Source of the DNA: Archangiaceae bacterium
Lineage (GTDB): Bacteria; Myxococcota; Myxococcia; Myxococcales; Myxococcaceae
NCBI GenBank assembly: GCA_043750125.1
Contig: JAYVCD010000141.1
Span: forward strand, 1 to 20,163
Direction of reading: 5' to 3'
DNA: 20,163 nucleotides
Positions 2 through 20,080 of this stretch are shown one piece after another. Made by a program: the position numbers and the translations under genes. The notes under the pieces were generated by a model. The model ran no database searches. It had not been told where the DNA came from and worked only from the letters and a program-made list of their open reading frames with translations. How positions within the stretch are numbered: the first letter of the stretch is position 1; every line of letters starts with the position of its first letter.

Positions 2-724
2 CGCCTCGGCCTCGACATCCAGTCCGAGTACGCCCAGTTGGCGGCGATTTCCAAGTACGTCGATGACACCCGGGTGCAGCGCAAAAACACCCCTGAAGAC
101 GAGAAGGCCTTCCTCGAGAAAGTCAGCTTCGAGCGCAAGGCCCTCGACGCCGTTCAGCTCGAGCTGGACAAGACCCGTCAGTTGTTGGCCGACCAGAAGA
201 ACAACGCCGAGAACGCCGTCGGCGGCGATGAAGCCCTCAAGCGCGAGTTCGACCTGGCGCTCAAGGCGCAGCGCGCCACCTATGAGCAGGTGCGCGGACA
301 GCTTCCTCCCGAAAGCGCGCAGGTGATGTTGCGCGCCGACGTGGTACGGGCCGATGCCCAGGGGGTCAAAGAGCGCATCGCGACTGCGAAAAACACGCTT
401 CGAGATCGCGTCGTGCGGCGGGCAGAGAAGCTGCGGGAACAAGTGTTGGTGGAACAAGCCCAGCTCGAAGGCTACGGCCGCGAGGTCACCGGGATCAGCA
501 CCGACGCCCGCGACCTGGTCGGTCGGATCGCTTTCGACAGCTTCAAGCGCGTGCGTCAGAGCTTCTACGACCTGGTGCTGAAGGCCGACGTGGGCGTGGT
601 GGACGTGGCCTTCACCCGAAAACAGGACAAGACCGCTCAGATCCAAAAGCTCTCAGCGCAAAAAGACCGCGAGCTGCGACAGCTCGACGATGAATTTAAA
701 GAAGTCCTCAAGGACGTGGATTGA
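2..724 (+). CDS. 5'-partial helical/coiled-coil protein, probably the C-terminus of the GltC/NfsC-like TPR gene of a Glt-paralogue cluster
   Basis: The frame is open from base 2 to TGA at 722-724, so the ORF-track start at 38 is internal. The C-terminus is a charged coiled coil (..LVLKADVGVVDVAFTRKQ..). Its stop overlaps the ATG of the GltD-like gene (TGATG). The GltC-like identity is inferred from position. Confidence 0.6.
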   Translation, partial: RLGLDIQSEYAQLAAISKYVDDTRVQRKNTPEDEKAFLEKVSFERKALDAVQLELDKTRQLLADQKNNAENAVGGDEALKREFDLALKAQRATYEQVRGQLPPESAQVMLRADVVRADAQGVKERIATAKNTLRDRVVRRAEKLREQVLVEQAQLEGYGREVTGISTDARDLVGRIAFDSFKRVRQSFYDLVLKADVGVVDVAFTRKQDKTAQIQKLSAQKDRELRQLDDEFKEVLKDVD

Positions 725-3700
725 TGGGTCGCCTGCTCACGACGTCGCTGGTCGTCTGTTCCATCTTCGCTCTGGCACAGCTGGGCAACGGCGCCGCAGC
801 CGCACCCGCCCAGGCCCCCGCACCCGCGAAGAAGGCGGACAAGAAGAAGGCCGACGCCGGACTCTCTTCCGAAGCAGCCCGGGGTCCCCGCCCGGCTCCC
901 TCTCCGTCAGGGGCGATCGAGCCCACCGTCGACGGCGGAACCAAGGCCGACGCAACCCCTGCCGAGAAGGTGAAGACCCGCTATTTCGAAGGCATGGGCC
1001 GCAGCCCCGCCGAGGTCGCCCAGCTCGAAGAGCTGTCGAAGACCCTGCTGGAATACGAGTCCGAGTCCAAAGAGTTCAAGCGCGAAGTCCAGCTGCTGGT
1101 CGAGCGGAAGTACGAAGAGAAGCGAAATACCCTCGCCAACAGCTACGAGCGCGCGATTCGCGACCTCGAAGTGCTCGAGCGCCGCGAGCGCCTCGATGCC
1201 ATCGCCCAATTCGAAGAGTTCCTCCAGCGCTACCCGGACGACCCTAAGTACACGCCCGACGTGACGTTCCGGCTGGCTGAGCTCTATTACGAAAAGACCA
1301 GCGACGATCATTCGTTGGCGATGCGCGATTACGAAGAGCGGATCAAGAAGATGGATCCCGAGAAGAACGTCACGCCACCGCCCGAGCCGAAGGTCGACTT
1401 CAGCAAGTCGATCGCACTTTATCAGCGGCTGATCGCCCAATTCCCAACTTACCGGCTCAACGACGCTTCGTATTACCTGCTGGGCTACTGCCTCGAAAAA
1501 CAAGAGAGCTTCGATGCCAGTCGGTCGGCCTACGCGGACCTGATCGCCAAATACCCCAAGTCGAAGTTCACCACCGAAGCGTGGGTGCGCATCGGCGAAT
1601 ACTACTTCGATGCGTACGACGTGAAGAACGCGCTCGCGCTCTCGGCCGAAGCCTATGAGCACGCGATCGTCGACACCAAGCACGCGCTCTACGACAAAGC
1701 CCTCTACAAGCTGGGCTGGGTCTATTACCGAATGGATCGCTTCGACGAAGCGGTCGATCGCTTCATCGCGCTGGTCGACTTCTACCAGGAGCAGGCCAAA
1801 GCCAAGGGCGAGGAAGAAGTTGGAGGCGATCTGCGCAGTGAGGCCCTGCAGTACACGGCCGTCAGCTTCGTCGACGAGAAGTGGGGCAGCCTCGCCAAGG
1901 CCCAGGAAAAATTCAGCAAGATCGGCGGCCGGGCCTGGGAATCGGAAATTTATCGCCGCATGGCCGACATCTACTTCGACCAGACCAAGCACCCTGAGGC
2001 GATCGAGGCCTACCGGTTGGTGCTGTCGAAGAACCCGCTGGTCAAAGACGCTCCGCAGATTCAGCAGAAAATTGTGCAGGCCTATGAGCGCGACCGGAAG
2101 CTCGATGAAGCTTTTGCCGAATCGTCCAAGCTCTCGAACATGTTCGGCCCCGGCACTCCCTGGCACGAGAAGTGGAGAAGGGATCCCGACATCATCACCG
2201 CCGCCGCCGAAATGGCTGAGAAGAGCCTCTATTCGACGGCGATCTACCATCACCAGCAGGCGCTGGTGTTCAAGCAGGAAGGCAAGTTCGAGCTGGCGAA
2301 GACGACCTTCGAAAGCGCCGCCAAGGCTTACGACACGTACCTCAAGCGTTTCCCGCGCAGCAAGAACGCCTACGAGATGGAATTCTACCTCGCCGACTGT
2401 CTATACAACTCGCTCCAGTTCGCCGAGGCCGCCAAGCACTACAACGCGGTGCGCGATTCCAGCCAGGACGTGCGCTACCTGTCTGAATCTGCTTTCTCCG
2501 CCGTCTTGTCGCTGCAGAAACAACTCGAGCTCGACGTCATCCGGGCAGTCGCCCCCAACCTTCCCGTCCTCACCAGCGCCAAGCGCCCTGAGAACGAGAA
2601 GATTGCGATCATCCCGATGGTCGATTCAGAGAAGGCGTTGGTCGCCGCTTCCGACGCCTACGTGGCGAAAGTGAAGGCCGACGAGAAGTCGCCCGGCATC
2701 GCCTACAAAGCTGCCGAGCTCTTCTACGTTCACAACGACTTCGAAGAGGCCCGCAAGCGGTTCAAGAACATCATCTCGACCTACCCCAAGTCCGAGGTCG
2801 CCAAATACGCCGCGAACCTCACCGTCGAGACGTACCTCATCGACAAGAACTGGGTGATGGTCGAAAAAGTGGCCCAGGAGCTTTCGGCGAACAAAGACGT
2901 AATTGACCCGAAAAGCGATCTGGCCAAGGACCTCAACAAGTTCAAGTTGGGCGGCCGGTTCAAGTTGGCCGAGCAGCTGATGGCTGAAGGAAAGTTCGAC
3001 GACGCGGCCAAGAAATACCTCGAACTGGTCGACGAAGATCCCAAGCACGAGTTTGCGGACAAGGCCCTGAACAACGCCGCCGTTTGCTACGAGAACACCC
3101 GGCGGTTCGACTCGGCGCTCCGGTTGTACGAGCGCATCACCCACGACTATCCCCAGTCGAAGCTCGCCGGGGCCGCGCTCTTCCGCGTCGCCGTCAACGC
3201 CGAGAACAGCTACGACTTCGACAAGGCCGTCGTCAGCTACCAGAAGCTGGTGAAAGACTACGACAAGAGCAAGGACCGCGAGGCGGCGCTCTTCAACACT
3301 GCCCGTCTGCTCGAAGGACTGCAGCGCTACAACGAAGCGGCCACCGCGTATCTGCGCTACGCAGACCTGTATCCGAAGAGCGAAGATGCTCCGAAGAACC
3401 AGTTCCGAGCCGCGCTCATCTACGAGAAGCAGGCCGACTACCCGAAGGAAATCAGCGCGCTCAACGAGTTCGTCCAGAAGTTCAGCAACGACAAGAACCA
3501 GGTCGAGCTGGTCGTCGACGCCAAGAAGCGAATCGCCGAGTCGTGGCAGAAGCTGAACAAGGAAGTCGAAGCGAAGAAGGCGTTCGCCGCGGCTGCTGAC
3601 GAGTTTGATCGCCGGGGTCTGAAGCCAGAGACCAATCCGGTCGCCGCCGACGCTGCAGCGATTTCGCGTTTTCAGCTCGCCGAGTACGACTTCAAAGAGT

Positions 3701-4224
3701 TCGACCGGCTGAAAATCGGCGGTTCCGGCAAGGCGCTCGAGAAGAGCTTCACCGCCAAGAAGGAATCGGTGAAGACGGTGTCTGCCAGCTACGACAAGGT
3801 CATCAAGTACAAGCGAATCGAGTGGACCCTGGCCGCCTTCTACCGAAAGGGCTACCTGCTCGAGCGCTTCGGCGCGACCATTCTCGAGACGCCGGTGCCC
3901 CCGGAAGTCAAACGAGCGGGCGAAGAGACAGTCGCCACCTATCAAGATCTGCTGGCCCAGCAGACGGTCGCCCTCGAGGACAAAGCCGTCGAGAACTACA
4001 CCCGCACGCTCGAAGAGGCGCGCAAGCAGCACATCTCGAATGAGTGGACCAAGCGAACACTCGAGTCGCTCAATCGCTTTCGTCCCAAAGAATTTCCGGT
4101 GCTCAAAGAGCCGAAGCTGCTGTTGGCGGGCGATGCGGTCTACCCCGATGGCGTCGTGGCGGGCGTCGAAGGCCCGGTGCGCACGGTCGATGCTCCACAG
4201 AAGCTCAAGGGTGACGAAAAATGA
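724..4224 (+). CDS. Large periplasmic TPR-repeat protein, GltD/AgmU/NfsD family (~1166 aa)
   Basis: Signal peptide MGRLLTTSLVVCSIFALA. Many Tol-Pal/BamD-like TPR units (AWVRIGEYYF, ALYKLGWVYY, YLKRFPRS, FADKALNNAAVCYE, ALFNTARLLE). C-terminal ..ALEDKAVENYTRTLEEARKQHISNEWTKRTLESLNRFRPKEFP resembles GltD-family ends. ATG 724 is preferred over TTG 721 because of the TGATG overlap. Confidence 0.8.
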   Translation: MGRLLTTSLVVCSIFALAQLGNGAAAAPAQAPAPAKKADKKKADAGLSSEAARGPRPAPSPSGAIEPTVDGGTKADATPAEKVKTRYFEGMGRSPAEVAQLEELSKTLLEYESESKEFKREVQLLVERKYEEKRNTLANSYERAIRDLEVLERRERLDAIAQFEEFLQRYPDDPKYTPDVTFRLAELYYEKTSDDHSLAMRDYEERIKKMDPEKNVTPPPEPKVDFSKSIALYQRLIAQFPTYRLNDASYYLLGYCLEKQESFDASRSAYADLIAKYPKSKFTTEAWVRIGEYYFDAYDVKNALALSAEAYEHAIVDTKHALYDKALYKLGWVYYRMDRFDEAVDRFIALVDFYQEQAKAKGEEEVGGDLRSEALQYTAVSFVDEKWGSLAKAQEKFSKIGGRAWESEIYRRMADIYFDQTKHPEAIEAYRLVLSKNPLVKDAPQIQQKIVQAYERDRKLDEAFAESSKLSNMFGPGTPWHEKWRRDPDIITAAAEMAEKSLYSTAIYHHQQALVFKQEGKFELAKTTFESAAKAYDTYLKRFPRSKNAYEMEFYLADCLYNSLQFAEAAKHYNAVRDSSQDVRYLSESAFSAVLSLQKQLELDVIRAVAPNLPVLTSAKRPENEKIAIIPMVDSEKALVAASDAYVAKVKADEKSPGIAYKAAELFYVHNDFEEARKRFKNIISTYPKSEVAKYAANLTVETYLIDKNWVMVEKVAQELSANKDVIDPKSDLAKDLNKFKLGGRFKLAEQLMAEGKFDDAAKKYLELVDEDPKHEFADKALNNAAVCYENTRRFDSALRLYERITHDYPQSKLAGAALFRVAVNAENSYDFDKAVVSYQKLVKDYDKSKDREAALFNTARLLEGLQRYNEAATAYLRYADLYPKSEDAPKNQFRAALIYEKQADYPKEISALNEFVQKFSNDKNQVELVVDAKKRIAESWQKLNKEVEAKKAFAAAADEFDRRGLKPETNPVAADAAAISRFQLAEYDFKEFDRLKIGGSGKALEKSFTAKKESVKTVSASYDKVIKYKRIEWTLAAFYRKGYLLERFGATILETPVPPEVKRAGEETVATYQDLLAQQTVALEDKAVENYTRTLEEARKQHISNEWTKRTLESLNRFRPKEFPVLKEPKLLLAGDAVYPDGVVAGVEGPVRTVDAPQKLKGDEK

Positions 4225-5987
4225 AGCGCGCTCTCGTTGTGCTGTGGGCGCTCTGTGCTTCGTGTGCCACGACTCCCCCGCCGAAGCCGACTGCCGTCCG
4301 CGCGGGCGGTGAGACTCCCGAAGTTCCCTATCAACCTCAACCGGTGGCCGGCAAACCCGCCGAGCCCACTGCGAGCGCGGCGGCGCCGGCAACGGGCGGC
4401 GAGGTCAAGCCGGTGGCCGCCGAACCCCCGGCGCCAACCAAGCCCACGTTCGATTCGCAGACTCAGAACACGTTCAAGGAAGGCGTCGAAGCCGCTTCGC
4501 GAGGCGATCTCGATGCTGCCGAACGTTCGTTCAAGTCGGTGATCAACCAGAACAGCAAAGCCGACTACGCCTACACCAACCTGGGAATGATTTACGAACG
4601 GCGCGGGGACGTTTCAGGCGCAGAGACCGCCTACCGAAAAGCGCTCGAGATTCGGCCGGATCAAGACGTGGCCTGGGACTCCCTGGCGCGCCTGTATTGC
4701 CGAACCAAGCGCTGCAACGGTTTCGAGAACGAAGTGCGGCAGAAGATCGCCGAACAACCCGCGGCGCTCGGACTGCGCACGGCCCTCGTCTACACCTTGA
4801 TGCAGCAAAACAAGTTTGAACCGGGCGCGGCGGAAGCCAAGAAAGTGCTCAAGGCCGATGAGCGTGACGTTCGAGCGATGCAGTTGCTCGCGCAGATCTA
4901 CGCCCGTGAAGGGAAGAACGAATTGGCGAAGATGGTTCTCGAAAACGCCCGCGCCATCGACGGCAACGACGCGGGCACCCACAACGCGCTTGGAATGATC
5001 TACCTCGCGCTGAAGCAGAAGCCGCAGGCGCTCGAGTCCTTCCGCAAGGCGTCCTCGCTGAAGCCAGACTTCGCCGAGGCGAACAACAATTACGGCGCGC
5101 TGCTCAACGAATCGCAGGACTACGACGCGGCGATCCTCGTCCTCGAAATGGCGGTCAAGAGCGCGCCCCAGTTCGTCGCTGCCCGCTTGAATCTGGGCAA
5201 CGCCTACCGGGGGAAGCAAGATCTGCCCAAGGCCATCGAGCAGTACAAGCAGGTGATGAACTTGAAGCCGGAACTGGCCGACACCTACTTCAATCTGGCG
5301 ATCCTCCACCTCGACTCCGAGATTCCGAACCTCGACACCCTCGATCGCTTCAAGACTTCGATCGCCTACTTCCAGCAATACCGGGAAAAGGGGGGCAGAG
5401 ACGATCGCGTCGACCAGTACCTGAAGGACGCGGCGAAGGGCGGCGAGAAGGAAGAGAAGCGCCGCGAACGCGAGAAAAAAGACGTGCTCAAGAAGGCCCA
5501 ACGCGAAGTCGACGCCAAGAAGCAGGCGGAAGACGACGCGAATAAAGCCAAGGCCGATTCGGCCGCTGCGGCGAAGAAGGCCGATGCGGACGCTGCCAAA
5601 AAGAAATCTGATGACGAAGCCCTGGCCAAGAAGACGGAGCTCGATGCGGCCAAGCACAAAGCGAGCGCCGATGCGGCGGCGGCAAAACAAAGCGAGGCGA
5701 GCAAGAAGAAGCAGGCGATCGCCGATGCCGCGGCGGCCAAGCAGGCGGCCCTCGATGCGAAAAAGGCTGAAGCGGAAGGAAAGAAGAAAGCCGCCGCGGA
5801 CGCGATCGCCGCGAAGAAGCAGGCCGCGGCCGACGCAATCGCGACCCGGAAAGCGGAGTCCGAAGCAAAGAAGAAGGAAGCCGCGAATTCCACAGCTTCA
5901 AAGAAGAACGGGGCCAAGCTCAAAGACCCGGATGACGAACCGCCCGCCGCGCCTGCCTCGCGTAAGCTGCAGTCCGACGACAAGTAA
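4221..5987 (+). CDS. TPR lipoprotein, GltE/AglT/NfsE family, with a long Lys/Ala-rich C-terminal tail
   Basis: Lipoprotein signal MKRALVVLWALCASC. Pro/Ala linker, then tandem TPRs (AYTNLGMIYE, THNALGMIYL, ANNNYGALL, ARLNLGNAYRG, TYFNLAILHL). ATGA overlap with the GltD-like gene. Confidence 0.8.
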   Translation: MKRALVVLWALCASCATTPPPKPTAVRAGGETPEVPYQPQPVAGKPAEPTASAAAPATGGEVKPVAAEPPAPTKPTFDSQTQNTFKEGVEAASRGDLDAAERSFKSVINQNSKADYAYTNLGMIYERRGDVSGAETAYRKALEIRPDQDVAWDSLARLYCRTKRCNGFENEVRQKIAEQPAALGLRTALVYTLMQQNKFEPGAAEAKKVLKADERDVRAMQLLAQIYAREGKNELAKMVLENARAIDGNDAGTHNALGMIYLALKQKPQALESFRKASSLKPDFAEANNNYGALLNESQDYDAAILVLEMAVKSAPQFVAARLNLGNAYRGKQDLPKAIEQYKQVMNLKPELADTYFNLAILHLDSEIPNLDTLDRFKTSIAYFQQYREKGGRDDRVDQYLKDAAKGGEKEEKRREREKKDVLKKAQREVDAKKQAEDDANKAKADSAAAAKKADADAAKKKSDDEALAKKTELDAAKHKASADAAAAKQSEASKKKQAIADAAAAKQAALDAKKAEAEGKKKAAADAIAAKKQAAADAIATRKAESEAKKKEAANSTASKKNGAKLKDPDDEPPAAPASRKLQSDDK

Positions 5988-5998
5988 GGATTTCGACC

Positions 5999-6241
5999 AT
6001 GCGCTGGCTTGCAATTTTCACGTTCCTTTTGACCTCTTCAGCCTCGCTGGCGCAGGCTCCTGCCCCTACGGCCAAAAAGAAAAAAGTGATCCGCCTCGAC
6101 GCGCTCACGGTTGAAGGGCGCATCCAGAAACCCCAGGCGTTCTACATTCTGCAGCGCAGCACGTTGAACTTCGACGAGCTCAACCGGGCTGAGTCGTTCA
6201 TCCCCAAGGTCGAGAAGAGCGTCGAGAAAGATGTGTTTTGA
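5999..6241 (+). CDS. Small secreted GltF/CglF/NfsF-like protein (80 aa)
   Basis: RBS-like AAGGA upstream. Signal peptide ending ASLA. Core VIRLDALTVEGRIQKPQAFYILQR. Size and position between gltE- and gltG-like genes match GltF. Confidence 0.7.
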   Translation: MRWLAIFTFLLTSSASLAQAPAPTAKKKKVIRLDALTVEGRIQKPQAFYILQRSTLNFDELNRAESFIPKVEKSVEKDVF

Positions 6242-6311
6242 GCAAATTGAGATAGTTAAGGAGTCTGGCCGTTCGGAACCTGAATCGGTCAGTTGAGGTC
6301 TGAGGAATCAA

Positions 6312-7631
6312 ATGCCCCCCGCGCCCGCCCCTGGTCACAAGAATCTGCGTGTTGCGCTGATTCAAGGAAGCAAGATCACCGAAGATCGCTCGCTCAAGCG
6401 ACGCGGTCCGATCACGTTAGGTACCGACTCGAGAAACACGTTCGTGGTCCCGGTGAGCAACCTCCCGCCCGCGTACACGCTCTTCGAATACATCAACAAC
6501 CAGTACACGCTCGTTTTTACCGAGCAGATGGACGGCAAGGTGAAGGTGGGCGACGCCGACCTCAGCTTTGCGGCGCTCAAGCAGCAGGGCCTGGCGAAGA
6601 AGCGCGGCAGCCACTACGCGCTGCCGCTCAATGAGAACATGAAGGGCCGCGTCTCGGTGGGCGAGGTCTCGCTCCTCTTCCAATTCGTCACCCCTCCTCC
6701 CGAGCCCCCCCGTCCCGAGCTGCCGCCCGGGGTGAAAGGCAGCTTTTTCGCGGGGCTGGATCAGTTCTTTTTCACCATTCTCGCGGTGAGTCTGTTCATT
6801 CATTTTTCAGGTGCCAGCTACATCGCGTGCCAGCCGATGCCTGAAGAGCGCGAGTTGTCGCTCGATGAGCTTCCCGACCGATTCGCGAAAATAATGATGC
6901 CGGTGCAGATCGACAAGCCACCGCCGCCGAAGGTCGTCGAGAAGGGTCCGGAGAAGAAAGAGGACGCCAAAGAAGAGAAGAAGGAAGAAGCCAAGGTCGC
7001 AAGCCCTGCGGACAAGAAAGCAGCCATGGAAAAGAGGGTCGCGAGCAAGGGCCTGCTGAAGATCCTTGGCTCCGCCGGCGGTGCGGGGGCCCTCGAAGAC
7101 GTTTTGGGCAACAGCACCGGAGGCGCGGCGATCTCGGACGCGCTCAATGGAGCAGGCGGAGTGGGCGTTGCGACCGCCGATTCTCTTGCGGCCGGCGGTC
7201 CCAAGGGCGGGGGGGCGGGCGCTGCAGCTGGCATCGGCGACCTCGGCACCTCGGGCGCAGGAAACGTGAACATCGGCTCCAAGGGCGACACGGTGATTCG
7301 GGGTCGCGTGGCTGATGCGGCACCCGAAGTAGAGAGCAAGGACGTCGATCGCGAGGCGCTGGCTCGCTACGTCCGATCGCGCAAAGCGGCAATCCAGGGT
7401 TGCTACGAGAAAGAGCTGAAGCGAAACCCGTCGCTGAAAGGCAAGGTCGTCGTCCGCTTCACCATCACCAAGATGGGGCGCGCCAGCGAGATTGGAATCG
7501 AAGAAGACACGATGGGCAACGAGGCGGTCGGCAGTTGCATCAAAGCGATCATCCGGGGCTGGGTGTTCCCCTTCAAGCCCGAGGACGACGTGCCAGTCGC
7601 GTATCCGTTTGTGTTCTCTCCTGCGAGCTGA
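6312..7631 (+). CDS. GltG/PglI/NfsG-like inner-membrane TonB/TolA-type energy transducer (N-terminal FHA-like beta domain, single TM, AgmX/PglI TonB-C-like domain)
   Basis: RBS GAGGA. Beta-rich cytoplasmic N-terminus. TM FFTILAVSLFIHFSG contains S-x3-H. Pro/Lys linker and Gly-rich stretch. C-terminal YVRSRKAAIQGCYEKELKRNPSLKGKVVVRFTI...CIKAIIRGWVFP...VAYPFVF. Confidence 0.82.
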   Translation: MPPAPAPGHKNLRVALIQGSKITEDRSLKRRGPITLGTDSRNTFVVPVSNLPPAYTLFEYINNQYTLVFTEQMDGKVKVGDADLSFAALKQQGLAKKRGSHYALPLNENMKGRVSVGEVSLLFQFVTPPPEPPRPELPPGVKGSFFAGLDQFFFTILAVSLFIHFSGASYIACQPMPEERELSLDELPDRFAKIMMPVQIDKPPPPKVVEKGPEKKEDAKEEKKEEAKVASPADKKAAMEKRVASKGLLKILGSAGGAGALEDVLGNSTGGAAISDALNGAGGVGVATADSLAAGGPKGGGAGAAAGIGDLGTSGAGNVNIGSKGDTVIRGRVADAAPEVESKDVDREALARYVRSRKAAIQGCYEKELKRNPSLKGKVVVRFTITKMGRASEIGIEEDTMGNEAVGSCIKAIIRGWVFPFKPEDDVPVAYPFVFSPAS

Positions 7632-7672
7632 AGGCTGTCTAAAATGCCCCCCGGGGTCCCAACCGGGGTGAC

Positions 7673-8629
7673 ATGAAGCAAAAGCGGCTCAATGAAGTGC
7701 GGGCGCTCATCTCCTCGGCTGACTTTCAAGCCTGGTGGAGTCAGCTGAACGACAACCGCGAAGGGCTGCGCGGGTTGGAAGAGCGTTACGAAGAGCTGCT
7801 GGGTCAATGCACGCTGACTGAGTTTCGAGCCGAGCTCACTCAGAAAAACGCGATCGACACGCTGTACCGCGCGGGCGAACACGAAGACACTGCCGCCAAC
7901 ATGTTGTTCGAGGCCACCGAGCTCGAGAACAAGAGCTTCAAGGGAGTGGCCGAATTTGAAGAGCAGCGAATCCGGGCTTCAGAAACCTGGTACCGCCTGG
8001 GCGCGGCCGAGAAGCATCTGGAAGAAGCCCGTGAGAAAAAGCACAGTGCAGGTGAAGTGCTGGCCCTGGAAAAGGGGCTGAAGCAGCTGGCCGACGACTA
8101 CGCGCGAGAGGAAGGCAGGAAAGCGCGGTCGTGGGACGAGGTCGAACGCCTCTGGGCCCGGAGCGCCGAGGTCAATCTGCGGGTCGCTGAGCAACGCGCA
8201 CTGGGCAAGAAGGTGCGTCGAAATGCCGAAAAGTTTTTTGGCCTCGCCGATGAGCGCAAGCAGAAGGCCAGGGAGCTCAAGGTCGACACGGAATTCGCCG
8301 CTCGAGCTTTGGAAACCGCGAAGGCACGTCGATCGGGAGTGCTGGAAGAAGCACGAGAGAAGTTCGGCTGCTCGGCGGGCACGGACTTTCTCTATTTTCG
8401 GCACCGCGACGACCAGCAAATGGCCTACTGCATAGCTCTGCTCGAAGATCGCGACGGTTACAATCTGGAGGTCAGGCCATTGGCGGTGTACCAAGTCGAT
8501 CGCACCCGTGGGGTCGCCTTTCTCGAGCCGGCACGGGTCGCTTCATTGTCCCAGGAAGAAGGCGATCTTCGGTTTGAAGAATATTTCTTGAGAGGGCGCA
8601 AAGGCGAAGTCGGCGCCGGTGGAGGGTGA
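7673..8629 (+). CDS. Hypothetical cytoplasmic coiled-coil protein with a small C-terminal beta domain (318 aa)
   Basis: Long ORF co-oriented with its neighbours. E/R/K/A-rich helical body, no signal peptide or TM segment. Ends 3 nt before the cNMP gene. Confidence 0.7.
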   Translation: MKQKRLNEVRALISSADFQAWWSQLNDNREGLRGLEERYEELLGQCTLTEFRAELTQKNAIDTLYRAGEHEDTAANMLFEATELENKSFKGVAEFEEQRIRASETWYRLGAAEKHLEEAREKKHSAGEVLALEKGLKQLADDYAREEGRKARSWDEVERLWARSAEVNLRVAEQRALGKKVRRNAEKFFGLADERKQKARELKVDTEFAARALETAKARRSGVLEEAREKFGCSAGTDFLYFRHRDDQQMAYCIALLEDRDGYNLEVRPLAVYQVDRTRGVAFLEPARVASLSQEEGDLRFEEYFLRGRKGEVGAGGG

Positions 8630-8632
8630 ACG

Positions 8633-9079
8633 ATGGAAAAACTATCCGTTCTTTCCAGTTCGCCACTCTTCGAGATGCTCTCGAAACAAGAGCTCGAGGC
8701 GATTGCCGAGCTCTCGCGGCCTCGACGCTTTTCCGCGGGCCAGACGATTTTCGAGGAAGGCGAGTTGGGTGACAGTCTGTTCGTCATCGGCTCAGGAGAA
8801 ATCGAGGTCGTGCGGCGAGACGCGACAGGAGAGCAAAAGGTGATTGCGGTGCTCCTCGCGCCGCAATTCTTCGGGGAGATGAGCTTGATCGACAAAGAAT
8901 ATCGATCGGCCACCGTTCGAGCGCGCAGCGAGGCCGAGTTGCTTCACTTGACCGCAGAAAACCTCACTACGTTTCGCAAGCAGCACCGCGACGGCTTCAC
9001 TTTCGTGGTGATTAACATCGCGCGCGTCCTGTCGGGCCGCCTGCGAGAAGCCAACACCCGTTTGGCCGCCCGACTGTGA
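8633..9079 (+). CDS. Stand-alone cyclic-nucleotide-binding domain protein (CAP_ED, no HTH)
   Basis: FSAGQTIFEEGELGDSLFVIGSGEIEV and phosphate-binding cassette FFGEMSLIDKEYRSATVRA. Ends after the C-helix (LSGRLREAN). RBS GGAGG. Confidence 0.88.
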   Translation: MEKLSVLSSSPLFEMLSKQELEAIAELSRPRRFSAGQTIFEEGELGDSLFVIGSGEIEVVRRDATGEQKVIAVLLAPQFFGEMSLIDKEYRSATVRARSEAELLHLTAENLTTFRKQHRDGFTFVVINIARVLSGRLREANTRLAARL

Positions 9080-9263
9080 ACTTTCGCCCCGGTGTAGAAA
9101 TATGCGCTCCCGCCAAAGTTTCGCAGCCCGGAGGACCCCTGCGAGGCAGGCCGTCAGCAACTTGTCTCTCGACTGGCTCGGGACTTGAACTCGGCTTGGG
9201 GTCTGAATGGCAGTCGCAGGCTGGGACACCAACAAGAGAATGAAGCAGTTTGGCAAGCTTGCG

Positions 9264-9293
9264 TTGACACATCGCGCAATAGATCTTTAGAGT
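9264..9293 (+). promoter_or_regulatory. Putative sigma70-type promoter for the secreted protein/beta-barrel/OPX unit
   Basis: Perfect TTGACA (9264-9269), 18-nt spacer, TAGAGT (9288-9293) in a ~257-nt intergenic region. Confidence 0.55.
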
Positions 9294-9336
9294 ATCTCCC
9301 CGATTGCAACTCGGGATTCGGGAAGGGGTAGGTTCT

Positions 9337-9915
9337 ATGCACACTCGCAAACTCACGGCGTTGGCAATTCTGATCGGTGGCGTGGCGATCGCCCAGGGCG
9401 CAGCCCAGCCCGAGGACAAAGGCACAGTTCCCCCTCCGGCTCAGTCAGAAAAAGCGATCGAAAGCTCGAACCTTTCTGATCCAGAAAAGATCCGTCGCAG
9501 TGCGGACGCGGTCACCAAAATGCGCGGAGCCTTGAAGAGCGTGTTGGTGAAGCTGGAAGAGGCCCGAAATAGTAAAGACGTGGTCAAGCTCAACTGCGTC
9601 AACGAGAAGCTGACACAGATTAAAGGGCTGCTCCGGATCTCTGAGCAGAGCGACATCGCGCTGCAGGAGTCCGTCGCGAAGAAAGAGTCTGCGACCGCCG
9701 AGCACGAATACACCAAGGTCAGCATCGCGGTGGTGAAGGTCAATCAGCTGAGCGCCGAAGCTGAGGAATGCATCGGGCAGCTCGCCTTTCGCACGGACGA
9801 GAACGCGACGACTGAGGTTGAAGAGCCGGACGATTTGCCAAAAGGTGACCCGACGTTGCTGTTGCCGTTGCCGCGGCTTGGGTACCGCAACCCACCTGCC
9901 AGTCCATCGCTGTAG
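9337..9915 (+). CDS. Secreted helical hypothetical protein with two Cys (~192 aa)
   Basis: ATG at 9337 after purine-rich GGAAGGGG, preferred to TTG 9304. Signal peptide MHTRKLTALAILIGGVAIA. Amphipathic helices with LNCVNEKL and AEECIG. Pro-rich C-terminus ending PPASPSL. Confidence 0.75.
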   Translation: MHTRKLTALAILIGGVAIAQGAAQPEDKGTVPPPAQSEKAIESSNLSDPEKIRRSADAVTKMRGALKSVLVKLEEARNSKDVVKLNCVNEKLTQIKGLLRISEQSDIALQESVAKKESATAEHEYTKVSIAVVKVNQLSAEAEECIGQLAFRTDENATTEVEEPDDLPKGDPTLLLPLPRLGYRNPPASPSL

Positions 9916-9992
9916 TTCCACAAAAATTTTTAGCCTTGAGCTCCTCCACCTTGTGGTAGGAGCCCGCCACACCAATGCAGTCGGGAGGGGAA

Positions 9993-11216
9993 ATGCCGCG
10001 TCGTATCATCGCGATAATCGCGCTCCTCGCGTCTTGTGTCGCTTTGGGGCAGGTCGAGAAGCCGATTGGGATCAAAATTGGCGACGGCCGCTTGCATCCC
10101 TATCTGGATCTTGAAGGTCGCTACGACAGCGCCGTGGTCGGAACGGTGCCTCTGCTTCAGCCGGATATCGCGGTTCGGTTTCGCCCAGGGCTTCGATTTG
10201 AGTTGCTCGGAAACGACAACGTCGTCAACTTCAACGGAAACGCCGAGTACGTGCTGTACACCGGGGCACTGAGCCCAGCGGCTCGCGGTGTTTCACATTT
10301 TCAGACCGACATTGCGCTGGATGCGGCCCTGAACAAGACCGGGGCGATTGAATTTCAGTTTGGAGACCAATTGGTCCGGAGCGATAGGAATAACAACCCC
10401 GTCTTCACGATCGGCGTCCTCTCTCTGTACAACAATTTGCGGGTCGCAGTTCCGATTCACCCCGGTGGCGGGGCTCTGGAGTTTTCCCCCAAGGCGGCTT
10501 GGTCGGTCGAGCTCTTCGAACCGTTGATTGCGGGAAATCCGGGCGGGTGTCCGGTTGGAAACCCCGCTTGCCAGTCGAGTCTCGCGTCGACGTTGAACTA
10601 CAGCAATTTGAACGTCGGTCTCGGCGCGCGCTGGCGATTCCTTCCGAAAACCGCCGTGGTGTTCGACGGGGGTGTCGACTACCGCACCTACTTCAACGGC
10701 AATGCGGCGACCCGTCCGGCCACCCTGATGAAGCTGCAGGCGGGACTCGCTGGTCTCATTTCCTCGAAAATTTCAGTCTTGTTGCTCGCAGGCTATGGAC
10801 GCGATTTCATTAGCAGCGGCCAGACATTTATCGCTCAGGCCGAGCTTGGCGTCCTTCTGTCGGAAGCCACCACTTTCAAGGTCGGCTACGTCCGAACCCT
10901 TCAGCCGGTTCCGGTCTACGGCATTTTCGGAGACGACCGTGGATATCTGGAAGCCAAGACGGCCTTCGGCCGATTCTCGCTGACAGGCAGCGCGGCGTTC
11001 GACTACCTGACTTTCTATGGGGGCGGGACCGCAGCAACGCCTCAACGCCAAGACTCAATCTTTACGCTCGGCGTCCGGCCCGCAGTGGCGATCTTCTCTT
11101 GGTTCTCAGTGTCCCTCGCCTACAACTTGAACTTGCGCCTTTCGAACGCGACGACGTTGCCGGGTTCCAGCTTTACCCGCCACGAAGTCATTCTGGGCCT
11201 CAGCTTCACTTACTGA
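9993..11216 (+). CDS. Outer-membrane beta-barrel, putative polysaccharide secretion porin (EpsX/ExoB/Wzp-like)
   Basis: RBS GGGAGGGG then ATG 9993. Signal peptide. Alternating amphipathic beta strands throughout and a C-terminal aromatic BAM signal (VILGLSFTY). Ends 1 nt before the OPX gene. Confidence 0.75.
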
Positions 11217-11217
11217 C

Positions 11218-11826
11218 ATGCGCTGGGGCTTGATGCCGGTGCTGGCTGTTCTTGCGCTGGGTGGGTGCAGGACGCCGAAGCCCAGTGGGGGTGGCGGAAC
11301 CATCCTCACCGACGAGGCCAACGCTCTCAAGCCCTCTTCGAGCACCTTGGGCCCTGGGGACATGCTCGAGGTCCGGGTTTTTCAAGAGGCTGAGCTGTCC
11401 GGTGTGTGGCGAGTGTCCTCAGAGGGCAACATCGACTTTCCACTGTGTGGCCGGGTTTCGGTGCTCGGGAAAACGTCGAGCGAGGCCGCGGACGCTTTGA
11501 CCCAGTGTCTTCAGAATGGCTTTCTCAAACGCCCTTCGGTGTCGGTGCTGATCCGCGAGTACAACTCAAAGAAGATTTTCATCTTCGGTGAAGTCTCGAA
11601 GCCGGGAACCTTTCCCTACGAAGAGAAGATGAACATCATCCAGGCTGTCCTACTGGCTGGCGGATTCACAAAGGCGGCTGCGAAGAACAGCGCCAACGTC
11701 ACCCGAATCATTGACGGTCAGGAACGCAAGATCAAAGTCGCGGTTCAGGACATTGGCGTAGGCATCGAAAAGAACTTCCTGCTCCAGCCCGGGGACATCA
11801 TCTTCATCCCCGAGAGCCTGTTCTAG
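11218..11826 (+). CDS. wza: Short OPX/Wza-family polysaccharide export lipoprotein (Poly_export + one SLBB, no C-terminal OM helix)
   Basis: Lipobox LALGGC. Poly_export motif [60 protein letters not shown]...AVLLAGGF. Terminates at [14 protein letters not shown] (202 aa). Confidence 0.9.
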
Positions 11827-12665
11827 GTTGACGGCTTCCAGCCGAGGGTCTTGAGGAAGTCCGAGCACTCGGCCGTCAGGGCATCGAATATGGCCGGGGA
11901 TGTTCCCATGATGTCTGAAGTGCGGGCGTTGAACGGCCGGTCGTCGAAAGGTCCGCCGTCGATGCGGCGCATTCGTCCCCCAGCCTCTTCAATCAACAGG
12001 GAGCCCGCTGCTACGTCCCACGGCTTGAGCCCCACCTCGAAGTACCCGTCGAGTCGGCCGCTCGCGACGTAGGCGAGGTCCAGCGCTGCGCTGCCCATGC
12101 GCCGAACGCCTCGCACCTTCTGAACAATCTTGTTGAAGAGGCCCAGGGGGACGTCGGGATTCAAGTGAACGTCGGTTGGGAATCCGGTCGAGAGCAGCGT
12201 CTGGCCCAACTCGGTCGTCTGGCTGCAGCGAATGGGGCGGCCGTTGAGGAAGGCGCCATTTCCACGAGAGGCGGTAAACAGCTCATTGCGTACCGGGTCG
12301 AACACCACCCCGGCCAGAAGCATGTGGGTCGACGTTTCTTCGACCGCCAGCGTGGTGCAGTAGTGCGGAATCCGGTGGGCGTAATTCACCGTGCCGTCGA
12401 GCGGATCGACAAACCAGACGTATTTCTTTTCGAGGCGAGACGCGCCCGACTCTTCGGCGAGGATGCCGTGGTCGGGGACGCGAGCGTTGAGGATTTTCAA
12501 CACTGCCGCCTCTGCTGCTTTGTCTGCGTCGGTCACCAGATCCATGCGGTCTTTGTCTTTGAAATTGATGACCCGCTCTTCGGAAAGCTTTTGGTGGAGC
12601 ACGGCGCCGGCTGCACGCGCGGCAGCAACGGCGACCTCGAGCAGCTCGGCTGAAGTCATGGTCAT
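11823..12665 (-). CDS. suhB: Inositol monophosphatase family protein (SuhB-like)
   Basis: [53 protein letters not shown]. True start ATG 12665 (ATGA overlap with TlpA stop) or 12659, not 13040. Confidence 0.92.
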
Positions 12666-13183
12666 TTTTCCACCAGCAGCGCTTCGATTTCGGTGACGTA
12701 CTTTTGGAGGAACTCTTCGGCAAACCCTTCGTGCACGTGGCGCAGGTTGCCTTTGCGGTCGATGATGAAAGCCGTGGGCATGACCTTCACCTGCAGTGCT
12801 CCTTCCGAGATGCTTGCGCCGGGGTCCAGAAGCACCGGCACTTCGACTTTGAGGTTCTTGAGGAAGGGGATCACGACCTTCGAGTCGGCATCGACGTTGA
12901 TCCCGTAGACCTTGAGTCCCTGCGCGCCGTACTGCTTGAGAAGGTCGTGGTACATCGGCAACGAGTCGGCGCAGGGCTCGCACCACGTCGCCCAGACATC
13001 GAGCAACACCACGCTGCCCAGATCCTGGCTGAGCTTCCACGGTTCACCGCCCAGCTGCCGCTTGAGCACCATCTGCTGCAACCCAGGGCGACCCGGCTCA
13101 GGCGTGCCGGTGAGGGCGGGCGCCGGATCAGATCGCAGACAGCTGGTCGCGCAGAGCAGAGCAGACAGAACGAACAATCGCAT
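12662..13183 (-). CDS. TlpA/ResA-like thiol-disulfide oxidoreductase, probable lipoprotein
   Basis: VVLLDVWATWCEPC, GINVD, cis-Pro motif MPTAFIIDRKG. N-terminal signal ending CATSC. Confidence 0.9.
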   Translation of the reverse strand: MRLFVLSALLCATSCLRSDPAPALTGTPEPGRPGLQQMVLKRQLGGEPWKLSQDLGSVVLLDVWATWCEPCADSLPMYHDLLKQYGAQGLKVYGINVDADSKVVIPFLKNLKVEVPVLLDPGASISEGALQVKVMPTAFIIDRKGNLRHVHEGFAEEFLQKYVTEIEALLVEK

Positions 13184-13204
13184 GGGCAGGTTGTGCCGCC
13201 TTGA

Positions 13205-14644
13205 TCACAGGCGTGCAAGCAGCTTGTCGAGGAACCCTCCAAAGTTGCCATTGCTCATCACCAGCAGCACATCGCCTGCCTTTGCACCGTCGACCACCTC
13301 GTCAACCAGAACATCGACCGAAGGGGCGGAAAACGCAGGGATCCCTTGTGCGGTGAGGGCGGCCACCAGCTTCGGAACATCGAGGCCCTCGCCGGCTGGA
13401 ATCTTGTCGTGCGGGTCGGCCACTTTGATGCTGGCGCGGTCGGCTTCGATGAAGGCGCGTGCGTAGTCTTCCTGGTGAATGTTGCGACGGCTGGTGTTGC
13501 TGCGCGGCTCGAAGATCGCCCACAGCCTTCGACCGGGGTTGTGGCCCTTGACCGCCAGAATCGTTTCGCGGACTGCTGTCGGGTGGTGGGCAAAATCGTC
13601 GACGACGCGAATTCCGTGAGTATCGGCCCTCACTTCCTGGCGGCGCTTCACGCCTGAGAAGGTCGCCAGGCCGGTAGCGATCTCGCTGAACGACAGACCG
13701 AGGCTGCGGGCGCAGGCGGTGACCGCGAGCGCATTTTCGACGTTGTGAGCGCCGCCCATCGGCAAGAGCACCCGTCCGAGCACGACGCCCCGTTCGACGA
13801 CGCTGAAGGCTGCTCCTTGCTCGGAAAATCGCAGGTCCCGGGGGGTGTAATCGGCGATCGCTCCGTCCTCGGCCCGATAGGTGACAACCTTCGCTGCGCA
13901 AGCTTTCGCAAGGACCAGCGCATTTGGGTAAGCGGTGCTCACGACGAGCAGTCCGTCACCGGGGATGATCTGAATCAGCTTCTGAAAGCTCGATTCGTAG
14001 TGGGCGAGGTCGCGGTAGATGTCGGCGTGGTCAAACTCGACACTGGTGAGGATGACCGTGCGGGGCTGGTAGTGAAGAAACTTGGGCCCCTTGTCGAAGT
14101 AGGCCGTGTCGTACTCGTCGCCCTCGACGACGAAGTGGGGACCTTTGCCGAGGCGGTAATTGCCGGCGTAATTCTGGGTGACACCGCCGACGAGAAAGCT
14201 CGGGTCTTTCCCAGCAGAAGTCAGGACGTGGCCCATCAACGAAGAGGTGGTGGTCTTGCCGTGCGTTCCAGCGACGACGATCGAATGTCGCTGCTTGAGA
14301 AACAGAGAGCCGAGGGCCGCGGGAAAGCTCATCTGCTTCAGACCGGCTTCGCGGACCGCGGTGGCCTCGATGTTCACCCGCCGGATGACGTTCCCGATGA
14401 TGACCAGGTCGGGCGCAGCCTGGACGAGGTTGTGCGGTGAGTACGGAGTCAGCGCGGGAATCCCCCAGGTCTTGAGCATCTCGCTCATCGGTGGGTAGAC
14501 GTTCTCATCGCTGCCCGTGACCTCATAGCCCGCGGCCTTCAGCATGCCTGCGAAGCTGCCCATGCCGGTGCCCGCGACCCCGACCAGGTGAATGCGGCGA
14601 ACGCTGTTCGGATCGAGGGTGGCGAGAATGTTGCCGTCGGACAT
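13205..14644 (-). CDS. mpl: Murein peptide ligase (UDP-MurNAc:L-Ala-gamma-D-Glu-mDAP ligase)
   Basis: IHLVGVAGTGMGSFAG, GSDENVYPPMS, AGTHGKTTTS, EGDEYDTAYFDKGPKFLHY, DDFAHHPTA, FEPRSNT, MSNGNFGG; these are Mpl-type rather than MurC-type signatures. Start is ATG 14644, not 14860. Confidence 0.9.
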   Translation of the reverse strand: MSDGNILATLDPNSVRRIHLVGVAGTGMGSFAGMLKAAGYEVTGSDENVYPPMSEMLKTWGIPALTPYSPHNLVQAAPDLVIIGNVIRRVNIEATAVREAGLKQMSFPAALGSLFLKQRHSIVVAGTHGKTTTSSLMGHVLTSAGKDPSFLVGGVTQNYAGNYRLGKGPHFVVEGDEYDTAYFDKGPKFLHYQPRTVILTSVEFDHADIYRDLAHYESSFQKLIQIIPGDGLLVVSTAYPNALVLAKACAAKVVTYRAEDGAIADYTPRDLRFSEQGAAFSVVERGVVLGRVLLPMGGAHNVENALAVTACARSLGLSFSEIATGLATFSGVKRRQEVRADTHGIRVVDDFAHHPTAVRETILAVKGHNPGRRLWAIFEPRSNTSRRNIHQEDYARAFIEADRASIKVADPHDKIPAGEGLDVPKLVAALTAQGIPAFSAPSVDVLVDEVVDGAKAGDVLLVMSNGNFGGFLDKLLARL

Positions 14645-14655
14645 GGTCAGTGGGC

Positions 14656-15741
14656 TCAAGGGGCGAGGGCGTCGATCACAGCGTCGTGGAAGCGGGGTCG
14701 AAAGTCTCGAATCGCGAGGTTCGCGCGCCCCAGCGCGACCCGATTGGTGCACAGGGCTACGACCACCTGTCGGTCCAGATCGACCCACAGGCTGGTGCCG
14801 GTGAAGCCCAGGTGGCCGAGGGCGCCGCGGGGGCCGCTGCGGCCGAAGCGTGGGCCACACGAAGCGCCTTCGAGCGACGGAGTGTCAAAGCCCAGCGCTC
14901 GCGTGCTGCCGGGGGTGATGGAATCGATGCGCCAGGAAACGTTGCGGGCCACCTTCCCCTCGAGAACTGCCAGTCCAAATCGACCCACGTCGAGGGCGGT
15001 CGCGAACACGCCGGCATGGCCTGAGACTCCGTCGAGGGACCAGGCGTTGTCGTCATCGACTTCGCCGGGTCGGGTAACGCGCGCAGGAATGTTCCAGAGG
15101 CCTTCTTGCCCGGGGGCAGGCTCGCGGGGGCGGCTGTTGCCGGTCGGGGCCAACGACGGCGGAAGTGCGGGGCTCGCAGAGACGCGTCGGAATTGCGCGG
15201 CCAGCCTCAGCGGCCCGGCGACGCGCTGGCTGAAGAGTGAATCCAGCGGGGTCCCTGAGGCGGCGGCGAGGGCTTCTCCGAGCAGAATGAAGCCCAGATC
15301 GCTGTACACGCTGGCCTCCCCCACTTTGCGAATCGGTGCGGTGGCGAGGACCTGCTCGAGGGTGCGCTGCCGGGCGATCGTGCGGAGCCGGGGCGGGCAA
15401 TCGTCGTCAAACAGCTGAGGGATTTCGGCCATCGGTCGGGCAAAAAAAGGAAGAAAAGCTGGGAGCCCCGAGCGGTGGAAGAGCAGATCTTCCAGCGTGG
15501 CGTCCCCTGCCGCGGCAGTGGGAAGAAAGCGTTTGAGCGGGGCTTCAAGCTCGAGGCCGAGCTCGAACACCAGCGCGGTGGTGGCGATGACCTTGGTGAG
15601 CGAGGCGAGATCAAAGACGGTGTCGCCGGGGGTATTTCCTCCTTCCCAGACCAGGTGCCCGCGCGCGAAGACGCACCCACGCGCGAGGGGGAAGACGTGG
15701 CTGCGAGCCCCTTCCTCGATCAGCACGTCGAGCTTCCCCAT
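14656..15741 (-). CDS. Beta-lactamase-related serine hydrolase (class C/AmpH/esterase fold), no signal peptide
   Basis: FDLASLTK (SxxK), LLFHRSGL, YSDLGFILLG, GHAGVF, GHLGFTGTSLWVD. ATG 15741 overlaps the LD-carboxypeptidase stop (TGATG). Confidence 0.88.
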   Translation of the reverse strand: MGKLDVLIEEGARSHVFPLARGCVFARGHLVWEGGNTPGDTVFDLASLTKVIATTALVFELGLELEAPLKRFLPTAAAGDATLEDLLFHRSGLPAFLPFFARPMAEIPQLFDDDCPPRLRTIARQRTLEQVLATAPIRKVGEASVYSDLGFILLGEALAAASGTPLDSLFSQRVAGPLRLAAQFRRVSASPALPPSLAPTGNSRPREPAPGQEGLWNIPARVTRPGEVDDDNAWSLDGVSGHAGVFATALDVGRFGLAVLEGKVARNVSWRIDSITPGSTRALGFDTPSLEGASCGPRFGRSGPRGALGHLGFTGTSLWVDLDRQVVVALCTNRVALGRANLAIRDFRPRFHDAVIDALAP

Positions 15742-20073: not shown

Positions 20074-20080
20074 CAGACAG

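Follow-up and report, generated by a model that had tools for sequence, protein, structure and literature searches.

Does a Glt-like trans-envelope machine encoded beside a polysaccharide export pore act on the polymer that leaves through that pore, or are the two machines only neighbours on the chromosome? This question is raised by a contig of an Archangiaceae bacterium (GenBank assembly GCA_043750125.1, contig JAYVCD010000141.1), of which the whole stretch of 20,163 nucleotides analysed here is called the window (G+C 58-67%). Ten consecutive genes on its plus strand, spanning positions 2-11826, encode five Glt-like proteins (C, D, E, F and G), two cytoplasmic accessory proteins, a secreted protein, a predicted outer-membrane beta-barrel and an outer-membrane polysaccharide export (OPX) lipoprotein. 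The initial annotation, made from the sequence alone, had listed this very set, a (C)-D-E-F-G run with overlapping or tight junctions followed by the other five genes, and open reading frames (ORFs) and family matches bear it out in full (Table 1). It had further proposed a motor-coupled system for handling the polysaccharide of an orphan pore. As set out below, the window appears to hold the counterparts of two gene sets of Myxococcus xanthus, the Glt-paralogue cluster G4 and the wzpB-wzaB end of the biosurfactant polysaccharide (BPS) pathway, and we consider it probable that these two machines are neighbours acting separately.

The answer matters on both sides of the block. G4 has been without an assigned function since 2011 (PMC3169522), and a term search of a 2025 review found no passage on G4 or G5. 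For Class-3 OPX/Wzp translocons, the OPX literature names as unsettled both where the energy comes from and what triggers opening of the gate. G4 adjoins wzpB/wzaB in nearly every related genome, and no discussion of this adjacency was found in the literature searched. If the two were coupled, each of the three Wzx/Wzy polymers or surface functions of M. xanthus would have a Glt-like partner of its own; if they are not, which is what we expect, the window holds no more than ordinary orthologues of two gene sets already described.

Gene order and its counterpart in M. xanthus

The Glt-like run is tightly packed, with 4-bp overlaps at the C/D and D/E junctions and gaps of 11 bp between E and F, 70 bp between F and G, 41 bp between gltG4 and a gene for a 318-amino-acid (aa) protein, and 3 bp between the latter and the gene for a cyclic nucleotide monophosphate (cNMP)-binding protein. 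The sole large gap (224-257 bp) precedes the secreted-protein gene, which is followed by the barrel gene after 59 bp and, 1 bp further on, by the OPX gene. All proteins of the window were scanned against Pfam and NCBIfam, and neither collection identifies any A/B/H/I/J/K-type glt gene in the window, nor any TolQ/ExbB/AglRQS-type motor gene, which could be encoded elsewhere. In particular, and as the initial annotation had observed, no gltH/I/J-like gene is recognised 3' of gltG4, where the 318-aa, cNMP, secreted-protein, barrel and OPX genes stand instead. The GltC4 fragment at positions 2-724 has no family match of its own in these collections.

This gene order recurs widely. Loci with 10-kb flanks were fetched with a GltG4 alignment for the best 80 of 276 relatives, and include the named genera Hyalangium, Archangium, Vitiosangium and Citreicoccus (GltG4 identity to named Myxococcaceae genera 51-56%) together with metagenome-assembled genomes (MAGs) labelled Myxococcaceae, Archangiaceae, Archangium or, more broadly, Myxococcales, Myxococcota, delta proteobacterium or Proteobacteria. 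D, E and F are present in 55 of the 57 loci with upstream room (exceptions L031 and L044). Downstream, where loci were considered assessable with at least 5.5 kb of 3' flank, the barrel and OPX genes lie on the same strand in 64/65, the exception being L043 from Hyalangium versicolor; among the 15 loci too short for this count, 13 still show the secreted-protein and barrel genes and 10 show all three genes of the pore unit. Between gltG4 and the pore unit the accessory genes vary: the cNMP gene is found in 53 of the 65 assessable loci and the 318-aa gene in 23, in arrangements with the cNMP gene only (31 loci), both (22), neither (10) or the 318-aa gene only (1). The recurrence of the order across loci implies that the arrangement in the window is not due to chance.

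The conserved block extends upstream as well. In 44 of the 47 loci with sufficient flank, mglB (Roadblock family), a gene for an MglA-like GTPase and an uncharacterised gene of about 265 aa lie directly 5' of gltC4 on the same strand (for example L003:281-2118 and L078:496-2457), and this polarity GTPase module is thus linked to G4 as tightly as the pore genes are. The complete order in L078, i.e., mglB, mglA, ~265-aa gene, C, D, E, F, G, cNMP, secreted protein, barrel and OPX, corresponds to MXAN_1926 down to MXAN_1915 of M. xanthus, one gene per number. There, mglB and mglA are given as MXAN_1926 and MXAN_1925 and wzpB and wzaB as MXAN_1916 and MXAN_1915, and MXAN_1922 is described as the gltD homologue of G4, a paralogue cluster to which no function was assigned (Luciano et al. 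2011, PMC3169522). With mglA taken as MXAN_1925, a gene count along the arrangement without the 318-aa gene places gltD4 at MXAN_1922 and barrel and OPX at MXAN_1916 and MXAN_1915. Because this count fits exactly, the window most plausibly represents the counterpart of mglB-mglA-MXAN_1924-G4 (MXAN_1923-1919)-cNMP-MXAN_1917-wzpB-wzaB, its Glt-like genes belonging to G4; a likeness to the wzaB/wzpB region of M. xanthus, which the initial annotation had pointed out, turned out to be correct. Neither gene set is new; what the window contributes is their orthologue in an uncultured Myxococcaceae/Archangiaceae-like relative.

A few loci depart from the common order. In Hyalangium versicolor (L043:11354-21312), G4 is followed by a gene for a large Ser/Thr kinase-GAF-histidine kinase and one for a cNMP-domain protein in place of the pore genes, and in a MAG contig (L031:1-9300) genes for sigma-54 activators and an ASH/PD40 protein take the place of D, E and F. 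Three loci (L033, L037 and L047) are without mglBA and the GltC-like gene upstream, and in one of them the GltD-like ORF reaches 1827 aa (L037, 2309-7792), possibly a fused or extended form. Finally, in four Archangium/Vitiosangium loci (L063, L071, L075 and L076), the matches to the C-terminus of the GltC-like protein and to the GltD-like protein lie about 1.1-2.0 kb apart, which suggests an extra gene or a longer GltC-like C-terminus.

The pore and its relation to the Glt-like genes

The OPX protein of the window matches the crystal structure of WzaB (PDB 9N9A) with an E-value of 3.3e-73 over residues 31-202, 112 of the 172 aligned positions being identical, and this provides direct sequence support for its correspondence to MXAN_1915. 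It contains only a Poly_export domain (residues 39-112) and an SLBB domain (118-197), ends at residue 202 and aligns end to end with sWzaB of 9N9A; at about 200 aa and with no C-terminal membrane-spanning helix in its sequence, it has the predicted architecture of a Class-3 OPX protein. Its N-terminus (...LALGGC) carries a lipidation motif at Cys17. It does not qualify as an EpsY equivalog, its match to NF041843 (68.7 bits) lying far below the cut-off of 320. WzaB itself is described as a lipid-anchored Class-3 OPX protein, acylated at Cys19, whose C-terminal Phe-Phe binds WzpB and whose Arg106-Arg107 binds WzcB.

The 413-aa product of the preceding gene is predicted to be a WzpB-like barrel from its signal peptide, its C-terminal Tyr (invariant in the alignment), its roughly 19 period-2 beta-amphipathic stretches and its place beside the WzaB orthologue. 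It also has two invariant Cys and an invariant motif, G-x-K-x-G-x-G-R-x-H, at the mature N-terminus; a sequence search of the PDB with it gave no match. In M. xanthus, MXAN_1916 is described as a 421-aa, 18-stranded barrel adjoining wzaB, and WzaB and WzpB as the Class-3 OPX and barrel translocon of the BPS pathway (PMC12819527, PMC9603273, PMC9601211); WzcB, WzaB and WzpB form a complex that is presented as a complete tripartite machinery, and wzaB mutants are reported to behave like other BPS mutants. Because the gene order matches the MXAN_1926-1915 block, the pore of the window is best regarded as the BPS translocon. The pore had been called an orphan, and this proves mistaken, since WzaB and WzpB are the demonstrated outer-membrane end of that pathway in complex with WzcB. 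The secreted-protein gene, wzpB and wzaB would accordingly encode the outer-membrane end of a Wzx/Wzy pathway for BPS, consisting of a gated beta-barrel with a ring of the lipid-anchored Class-3 OPX protein beneath it.

The secreted protein precedes the barrel in 64/65 assessable loci. It has 1261 homologues, and all of the 120 listed are named 'hypothetical protein' except one (jgi: 'aspartate oxidase'). Its structural model is a three-helix bundle (pLDDT, the predicted local distance difference test score, above 90 at residues 48-147) followed by a disordered tail, and its sequence features two invariant Cys and the conserved tail motifs LPxGDPT and RPPPASPT. A fold search yielded generic helical bundles only, with 0 PDB matches at E <= 0.001, and a PDB sequence search with the protein gave no match. 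As this positional counterpart of MXAN_1917 is not mentioned in the OPX papers examined, a secreted three-helix protein is new to the description of the wzpB-wzaB system and, as the conserved head of the wzpB-wzaB unit, offers work on BPS a minor starting point in its own right.

Whether G4 and this pore are coupled can be approached through the strength of their linkage. A check for conservation of the linkage had been put forward with the initial proposal; the linkage does hold, in 64/65 loci with Myxococcaceae/Archangiaceae or broader labels, and holds no better than junctions between unrelated genes of the same block (OPX-to-mpl 50/54, mpl-to-ldcA 29/29). Because the whole block is syntenic and unrelated junctions are kept almost as often, the G4-pore linkage carries no specific signal. 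Moreover, the pore operon appears to have a promoter of its own. A sigma-70-like candidate in the large gap (Table 1) is the sole such match within positions 5900-12100 (6.2 kb), and the same pattern occurs 5' of the secreted-protein gene in 29/78 regions in its strict form and 64/78 in its relaxed form, some of these 78 regions being imprecisely cut and start-codon choice being rough. Its density there is 2.3 (strict) and 5.2 (relaxed) matches per kb as opposed to 0.02 and 0.06 in the loci overall, a difference of about 90-100-fold. The secreted-protein gene, wzpB and wzaB would therefore form their own predicted transcription unit behind a conserved sigma-70-like promoter.

The alternative is that G4 is the Nfs-equivalent for BPS, an Agl-type motor-driven machine that extracts, gates or distributes the polymer leaving through WzpB. 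Contact with GltC4 or GltG4 might open the barrel gate, or the secreted three-helix protein might serve as an adaptor. We regard this as unlikely, and hold as equally doubtful the related view that G4 is a third Agl-type transducer driven by the proton-motive force and dedicated to polysaccharide, which would engage the BPS translocon directly or via a protein of the MXAN_1917 family and open the WzpB gate or pull BPS. Apart from the linkage and the promoter, several published observations argue against coupling. In Sandaracinus amylolyticus, wzaB is reported to be contiguous with the BPS synthesis genes, i.e., to lie within a BPS cluster. A polar MXAN_1922 mutant is described as having no motility defect 'at any appreciable level', the legend of Fig. 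S5 naming gliding and twitching (PMC3169522), yet loss of BPS compromises swarming, with T4P-dependent swarm spreading affected in BPS-minus strains. BPS is reported to be released from the cell, which would leave a surface-winding machine without an obvious substrate.

Rates of evolution do not separate the two views. Among 23 taxa and nine proteins, covariation is 0.49 for GltG-barrel and 0.50 for GltD-secreted protein, no stronger than for some unrelated pairs (0.60 for inositol monophosphatase (IMPase)-beta-lactamase-like); among 32 taxa and 12 proteins, the mean r is 0.20 for G4-pore (15 pairs), -0.18 for G4-housekeeping and 0.51 for housekeeping genes among themselves. Covariation is a weak test because the method barely sees the known barrel-OPX pair, which reaches just 0.23 in the latter set.

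Several points do weigh against independence of the two machines. G4 and the pore genes stay adjacent and co-oriented through three accessory arrangements, gltG4 directly abuts the secreted-protein gene in 10/65 loci, and in L031 gltG4 remains with the pore genes despite the replacement of D, E and F. No terminator-like site was found in the 224-257-bp gap, and read-through from G4 is possible. The G4-pore covariation is weakly positive and nearly as high as that of the known barrel-OPX pair. Motility of the MXAN_1922 mutant is documented by qualitative pictures, and we infer the orthology to individual MXAN numbers by gene counting. WzpB is the sole outer-membrane barrel nearby, G4 itself encoding none. 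There is also precedent, Nfs being described as handling the spore-coat polymer (the Agl-Nfs pairing with Exo/MASC) and Glt as binding slime, and the WzaB study states the impetus for opening the Wzp surface gate as unresolved, the rigid OPX protein being unable to transmit it. With these points set against the linkage, promoter, Sandaracinus and mutant evidence, the proposed motor-coupled handling of polysaccharide finds no specific support, and separate action of the two neighbours remains the reading we favour. The terms 'glt' and 'tonb' are absent from two WzaB/WzpB papers, and 'glt' occurs in a third OPX paper only as a gltB control strain; the coupling idea is thus unpublished as far as the literature searches reach, and unsupported.

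The Glt-like proteins

None of the Glt-like proteins approaches the NCBIfam cut-offs for the gliding machinery. GltG4 scores 156.8 bits against NF033760 (cut-off 650; model positions 224-648 covered), GltE4 88.3 bits against NF033758 (cut-off 225) and GltF4 23.9 bits against NF033764 CglF (cut-off 90). Two full-length GltC4 orthologues, L003:2147-4498 (783 aa) and L078:2470-4881 (803 aa), both with tetratricopeptide repeat (TPR) families, score 69.3 and 74 bits, respectively, against NF033756 GltC (cut-off 450). Because these cut-offs are missed so widely, and with no A/B/H/I/J/K gene present, the Glt-like proteins of the window are classed by profile score as a Glt paralogue and not a gliding machine, in agreement with the initial annotation. 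An exhaustive search with GltG4 points the same way: it yielded 486 representative proteins at E <= 1e-30, of which the best 150 are mostly 408-498 aa long, the others being fragments or longer fused forms; both the best 120 and the best 150 are all G4-type or unnamed, and 0/20 representatives sampled from the best 150 reach the GltG equivalog cut-off. By these scores, the relatives of GltG4 are a large family of their own, distinct from gliding GltG. Among the fused or extended members (P0140, P0161, P0180 and P0196), one of 1806 aa has YbgF-type TPR repeats before the GltG-like part, and three of about 925 aa have a family-less N-terminal part of 475 residues.

The other members of the run are conserved to differing extents. 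GltD4 shows 59-92% identity across the fetched loci. In the alignment, GltC4 is strongly conserved over its C-terminal 70 residues, the approximately 55 mature residues of GltF4 are near-invariant in 17 sequences, and GltE4 orthologues with a correctly picked start have an N-terminal Cys followed by [AV]TTP. The tail of GltE4 (residues ~420-588, positions 5478-5987) is a 170-residue low-complexity stretch rich in Ala and Lys (56 Ala and 39 Lys) that varies among orthologues.

The AlphaFold model of GltG4 (mean pLDDT 78.6) comprises a beta-sandwich at residues 11-126, a transmembrane (TM) helix at 151-173, a disordered or low-confidence stretch at 195-330 and a compact domain at 332-436. In a Foldseek search, the beta-sandwich resembles FHA domains (TMt 0.57-0.68) and the compact domain the TonB C-terminal domain (TonB-CTD; 6sly, 5lw8, 7zc8), with E-values of 3e-3 to 3e-2 throughout because the query is multi-domain. 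The C-terminal assignment agrees with sequence profiles: GltG4 passes the model for the AgmX/PglI C-terminal domain (NF033768, 100 bits, cut-off 40), its profile matches 13 TonB sequences of the PDB, and TonB_C is found in 46/50 members of its family. The modelled plan is thus that of a TonB/TolA-type transducer, in which an extended linker joins a TM anchor to a TonB-CTD fold.

By analogy, G4 would be a Tol/Ton-like transducer of five proteins that spans the periplasm and conforms to the 'core complex plus GltF' type. In the published Agl-Glt model, two FHA domains are present in GltG, the linker of which wraps around GltD; the TonB-CTD is seated on GltD and accepts a beta-strand contributed by GltF. 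GltF in turn forms the bridge to GltC, which grips the outer-membrane barrels via the free N-terminal strand of GltB. GltG4 would likewise be anchored in the inner membrane by its single TM helix, its FHA-like domain facing the cytoplasm and a long disordered linker leading to its TonB-CTD-like domain. The linker may wrap the TPR scaffold GltD4, GltF4 may lend a beta-strand to the TonB-CTD-like domain and bridge to GltC4, and the lipoprotein GltE4 may tie the assembly to the outer membrane. A proton-driven motor, AglRQS-type or a paralogue, would be encoded elsewhere, as no TolQ/ExbB-type gene lies in the window, and the machine would not be one for gliding. The contact to barrels made through the N-terminal strand of GltB argues further against coupling to the BPS pore, as mature WzpB is almost without an N-terminal extension. 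Docking of the GltG4 TonB-CTD on a TonB box of the barrel was also considered and rejected, given that the Agl-Glt domain binds GltD/GltF and that mature WzpB has almost no free N-terminus.

Two other roles for G4 have to be weighed against these features. The first takes G4 as the output of the MglA/MglB polarity switch, its FHA-like domain and its cNMP neighbour receiving signals and its cargo being other than BPS. The same-strand mglB-mglA genes and ~265-aa gene upstream of gltC4 in 44/47 loci, the cNMP-binding gene 3' of gltG4 in 53/65 and the modelled cytoplasmic FHA-like domain of GltG4 are all consistent with it, as is the report that MglA-GTP acts through GltJ to drive the paralogous Agl-Glt machine's assembly (PMC11135422). 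Nevertheless, GltG4 is without the ZnR and GYF modules named for GltJ, three loci (L033, L037 and L047) are without mglBA and gltC4 upstream, and in a single syntenic block the adjacency to mglBA weighs as little as that to wzpB; we consider this role improbable.

The second, to which we give just as little credence, is envelope maintenance of the Tol-Pal/CpoB kind, G4 coupling the proton-motive force to the remodelling of peptidoglycan or of the outer membrane. GltD4 scores above the YbgF/CpoB cut-off of TIGR02795 (158.5 vs 90.1 bits, in 7 stretches), although such matches may reflect TPR repeats alone, and GltG4 is modelled with a TolA/TonB-like topology. AglR5QS-GltG has been likened to TolQ5R2-TolA, and an ancestral core complex is described in non-gliding bacteria (PMC3169522). 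Three peptidoglycan-recycling genes (mpl, ldcA and one of the AmpH/PBP4B-like kind) are found no more than 5 kb away, but they are encoded on the opposite strand and covary in rate among themselves and not with G4 (the mean r of -0.18 given above). Furthermore, M. xanthus is reported to have a bona fide Tol-Pal system elsewhere (MXAN_5754-5757).

Neighbouring genes and known systems

The minus-strand neighbours of the block begin with a gene of the IMPase family that converges on the stop codon of the OPX gene and carries a long N-terminal extension which is probably untranslated; together with the recycling genes it occupies positions 11823-16631. Most loci keep these IMPase and Mpl/AmpH-PBP4B/LdcA genes in synteny, and the genes covary mutually in rate. 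Beyond them, two ORFs overlap on opposite strands (16664-17335, plus; 16939-18060, minus), neither with a family match, the plus-strand ORF showing 41-54% identity in the loci. An Rfam scan of the window detected a tRNA only, with no riboswitch in the 5' leader.

Table 1 Features of the window, with positions, strand and basis of assignment
Feature	Position	Strand	Basis or remark
GltC-like TPR/coiled-coil periplasmic protein (GltC4), 3' end, 240 codons	2..724	+	ORF open at window start
GltD-like periplasmic TPR scaffold (GltD4), 1167 aa, signal peptide	721..4224	+	TPR families, position, size
GltE-like TPR lipoprotein (GltE4), 588 aa	4221..5987	+	NF033758 GltE, E 4.9e-25
GltF-like small secreted protein (GltF4), 80 aa	5999..6241	+	NF033764 CglF, E 3e-5
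GltG-like inner-membrane transducer (GltG4), 439 aa	6312..7631	+	NF033760 GltG, E 8e-46
Accessory cytoplasmic protein, 318 aa	7673..8629	+	No family, no signal peptide, no TM segment
Stand-alone cNMP-binding domain protein, 148 aa	8633..9079	+	PF00027, 83.2 bits
Sigma-70-like promoter candidate TTGACA-18 nt-TAGAGT, predicted	9264..9293	+	Pattern search
Secreted protein, 192 aa from ATG	9337..9915 (ORF opens TTG 9304)	+	Signal peptide, no family
WzpB-like outer-membrane beta-barrel porin, 413 aa, predicted	9975..11216	+	Signal peptide, C-terminal Tyr, gene position
WzaB-like Class-3 OPX lipoprotein, 202 aa	11218..11826	+	Poly_export + SLBB, match to PDB 9N9A
Mpl	13205-14860	-	Peptidoglycan recycling
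AmpH/PBP4B-like protein	14656-15744	-	Peptidoglycan recycling
LdcA	15741-16631	-	Peptidoglycan recycling
RsmB-like 16S rRNA cytosine-C5 methyltransferase	18156-19331	-	229 bits vs equivalog cut-off 540
tRNA-Asn (anticodon GTT)	20001-20074	+	Rfam

Compared with Tol-Pal (with CpoB/YbgF) and TonB-ExbBD, the Glt-like proteins of the window share an inner-membrane anchor, a long linker, a TonB/TolA-type C-terminal domain, TPR partners and an outer-membrane lipoprotein. They differ in that the window has no TolQ/R, ExbB/D, TolB, Pal or TonB-dependent receptor, and in that the TPR partners of G4 are far larger. Agl-Nfs resembles G4 in being a Glt paralogue with a non-motility role, and its polymer is reported to be exported through a Class-3 OPX/Wzp pair, ExoA/ExoB; however, nfs is a contiguous A-H cluster including A, B and H, which G4 lacks (mglB, mglA and the ~265-aa gene lying upstream of it), and the cargo of Nfs is described as staying on the spore whereas BPS is released.

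With the Agl-Glt machine (GltA-K, CglB, AglRQS), the window has in common homologous C, D, E, F and G proteins and a GltG plan of FHA, TM helix, linker and TonB-CTD. GltG4 has one FHA-like domain in 439 aa, in contrast to the two FHA domains and the TonB-CTD at residues 584-674 described for GltG, and G4 has no outer-membrane platform (gltK-B-A), GltI/J or motor in the window and the 10-kb flanks of the loci.

The closest likenesses are those to the M. xanthus block itself. The window shares with M. xanthus G4 the C-D-E-F-G order between mglBA and wzpB/wzaB without A/B/H/I/J/K, that cluster being described as a paralogue unable to replace Glt (PMC3169522), and differs from it by the extra 318-aa gene between gltG4 and the cNMP gene. 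Similarly, it shares with WzaB/WzpB an OPX protein of about 200 aa with Poly_export and SLBB domains and a lipobox Cys, encoded immediately downstream of the barrel gene, the two genes being separated by 1 bp in the window and by a reported 23 bp in M. xanthus, while the residues aligned to Arg106-Arg107 and to the C-terminal Phe-Phe of WzaB are Lys-Arg and Leu-Phe, both conservative changes.

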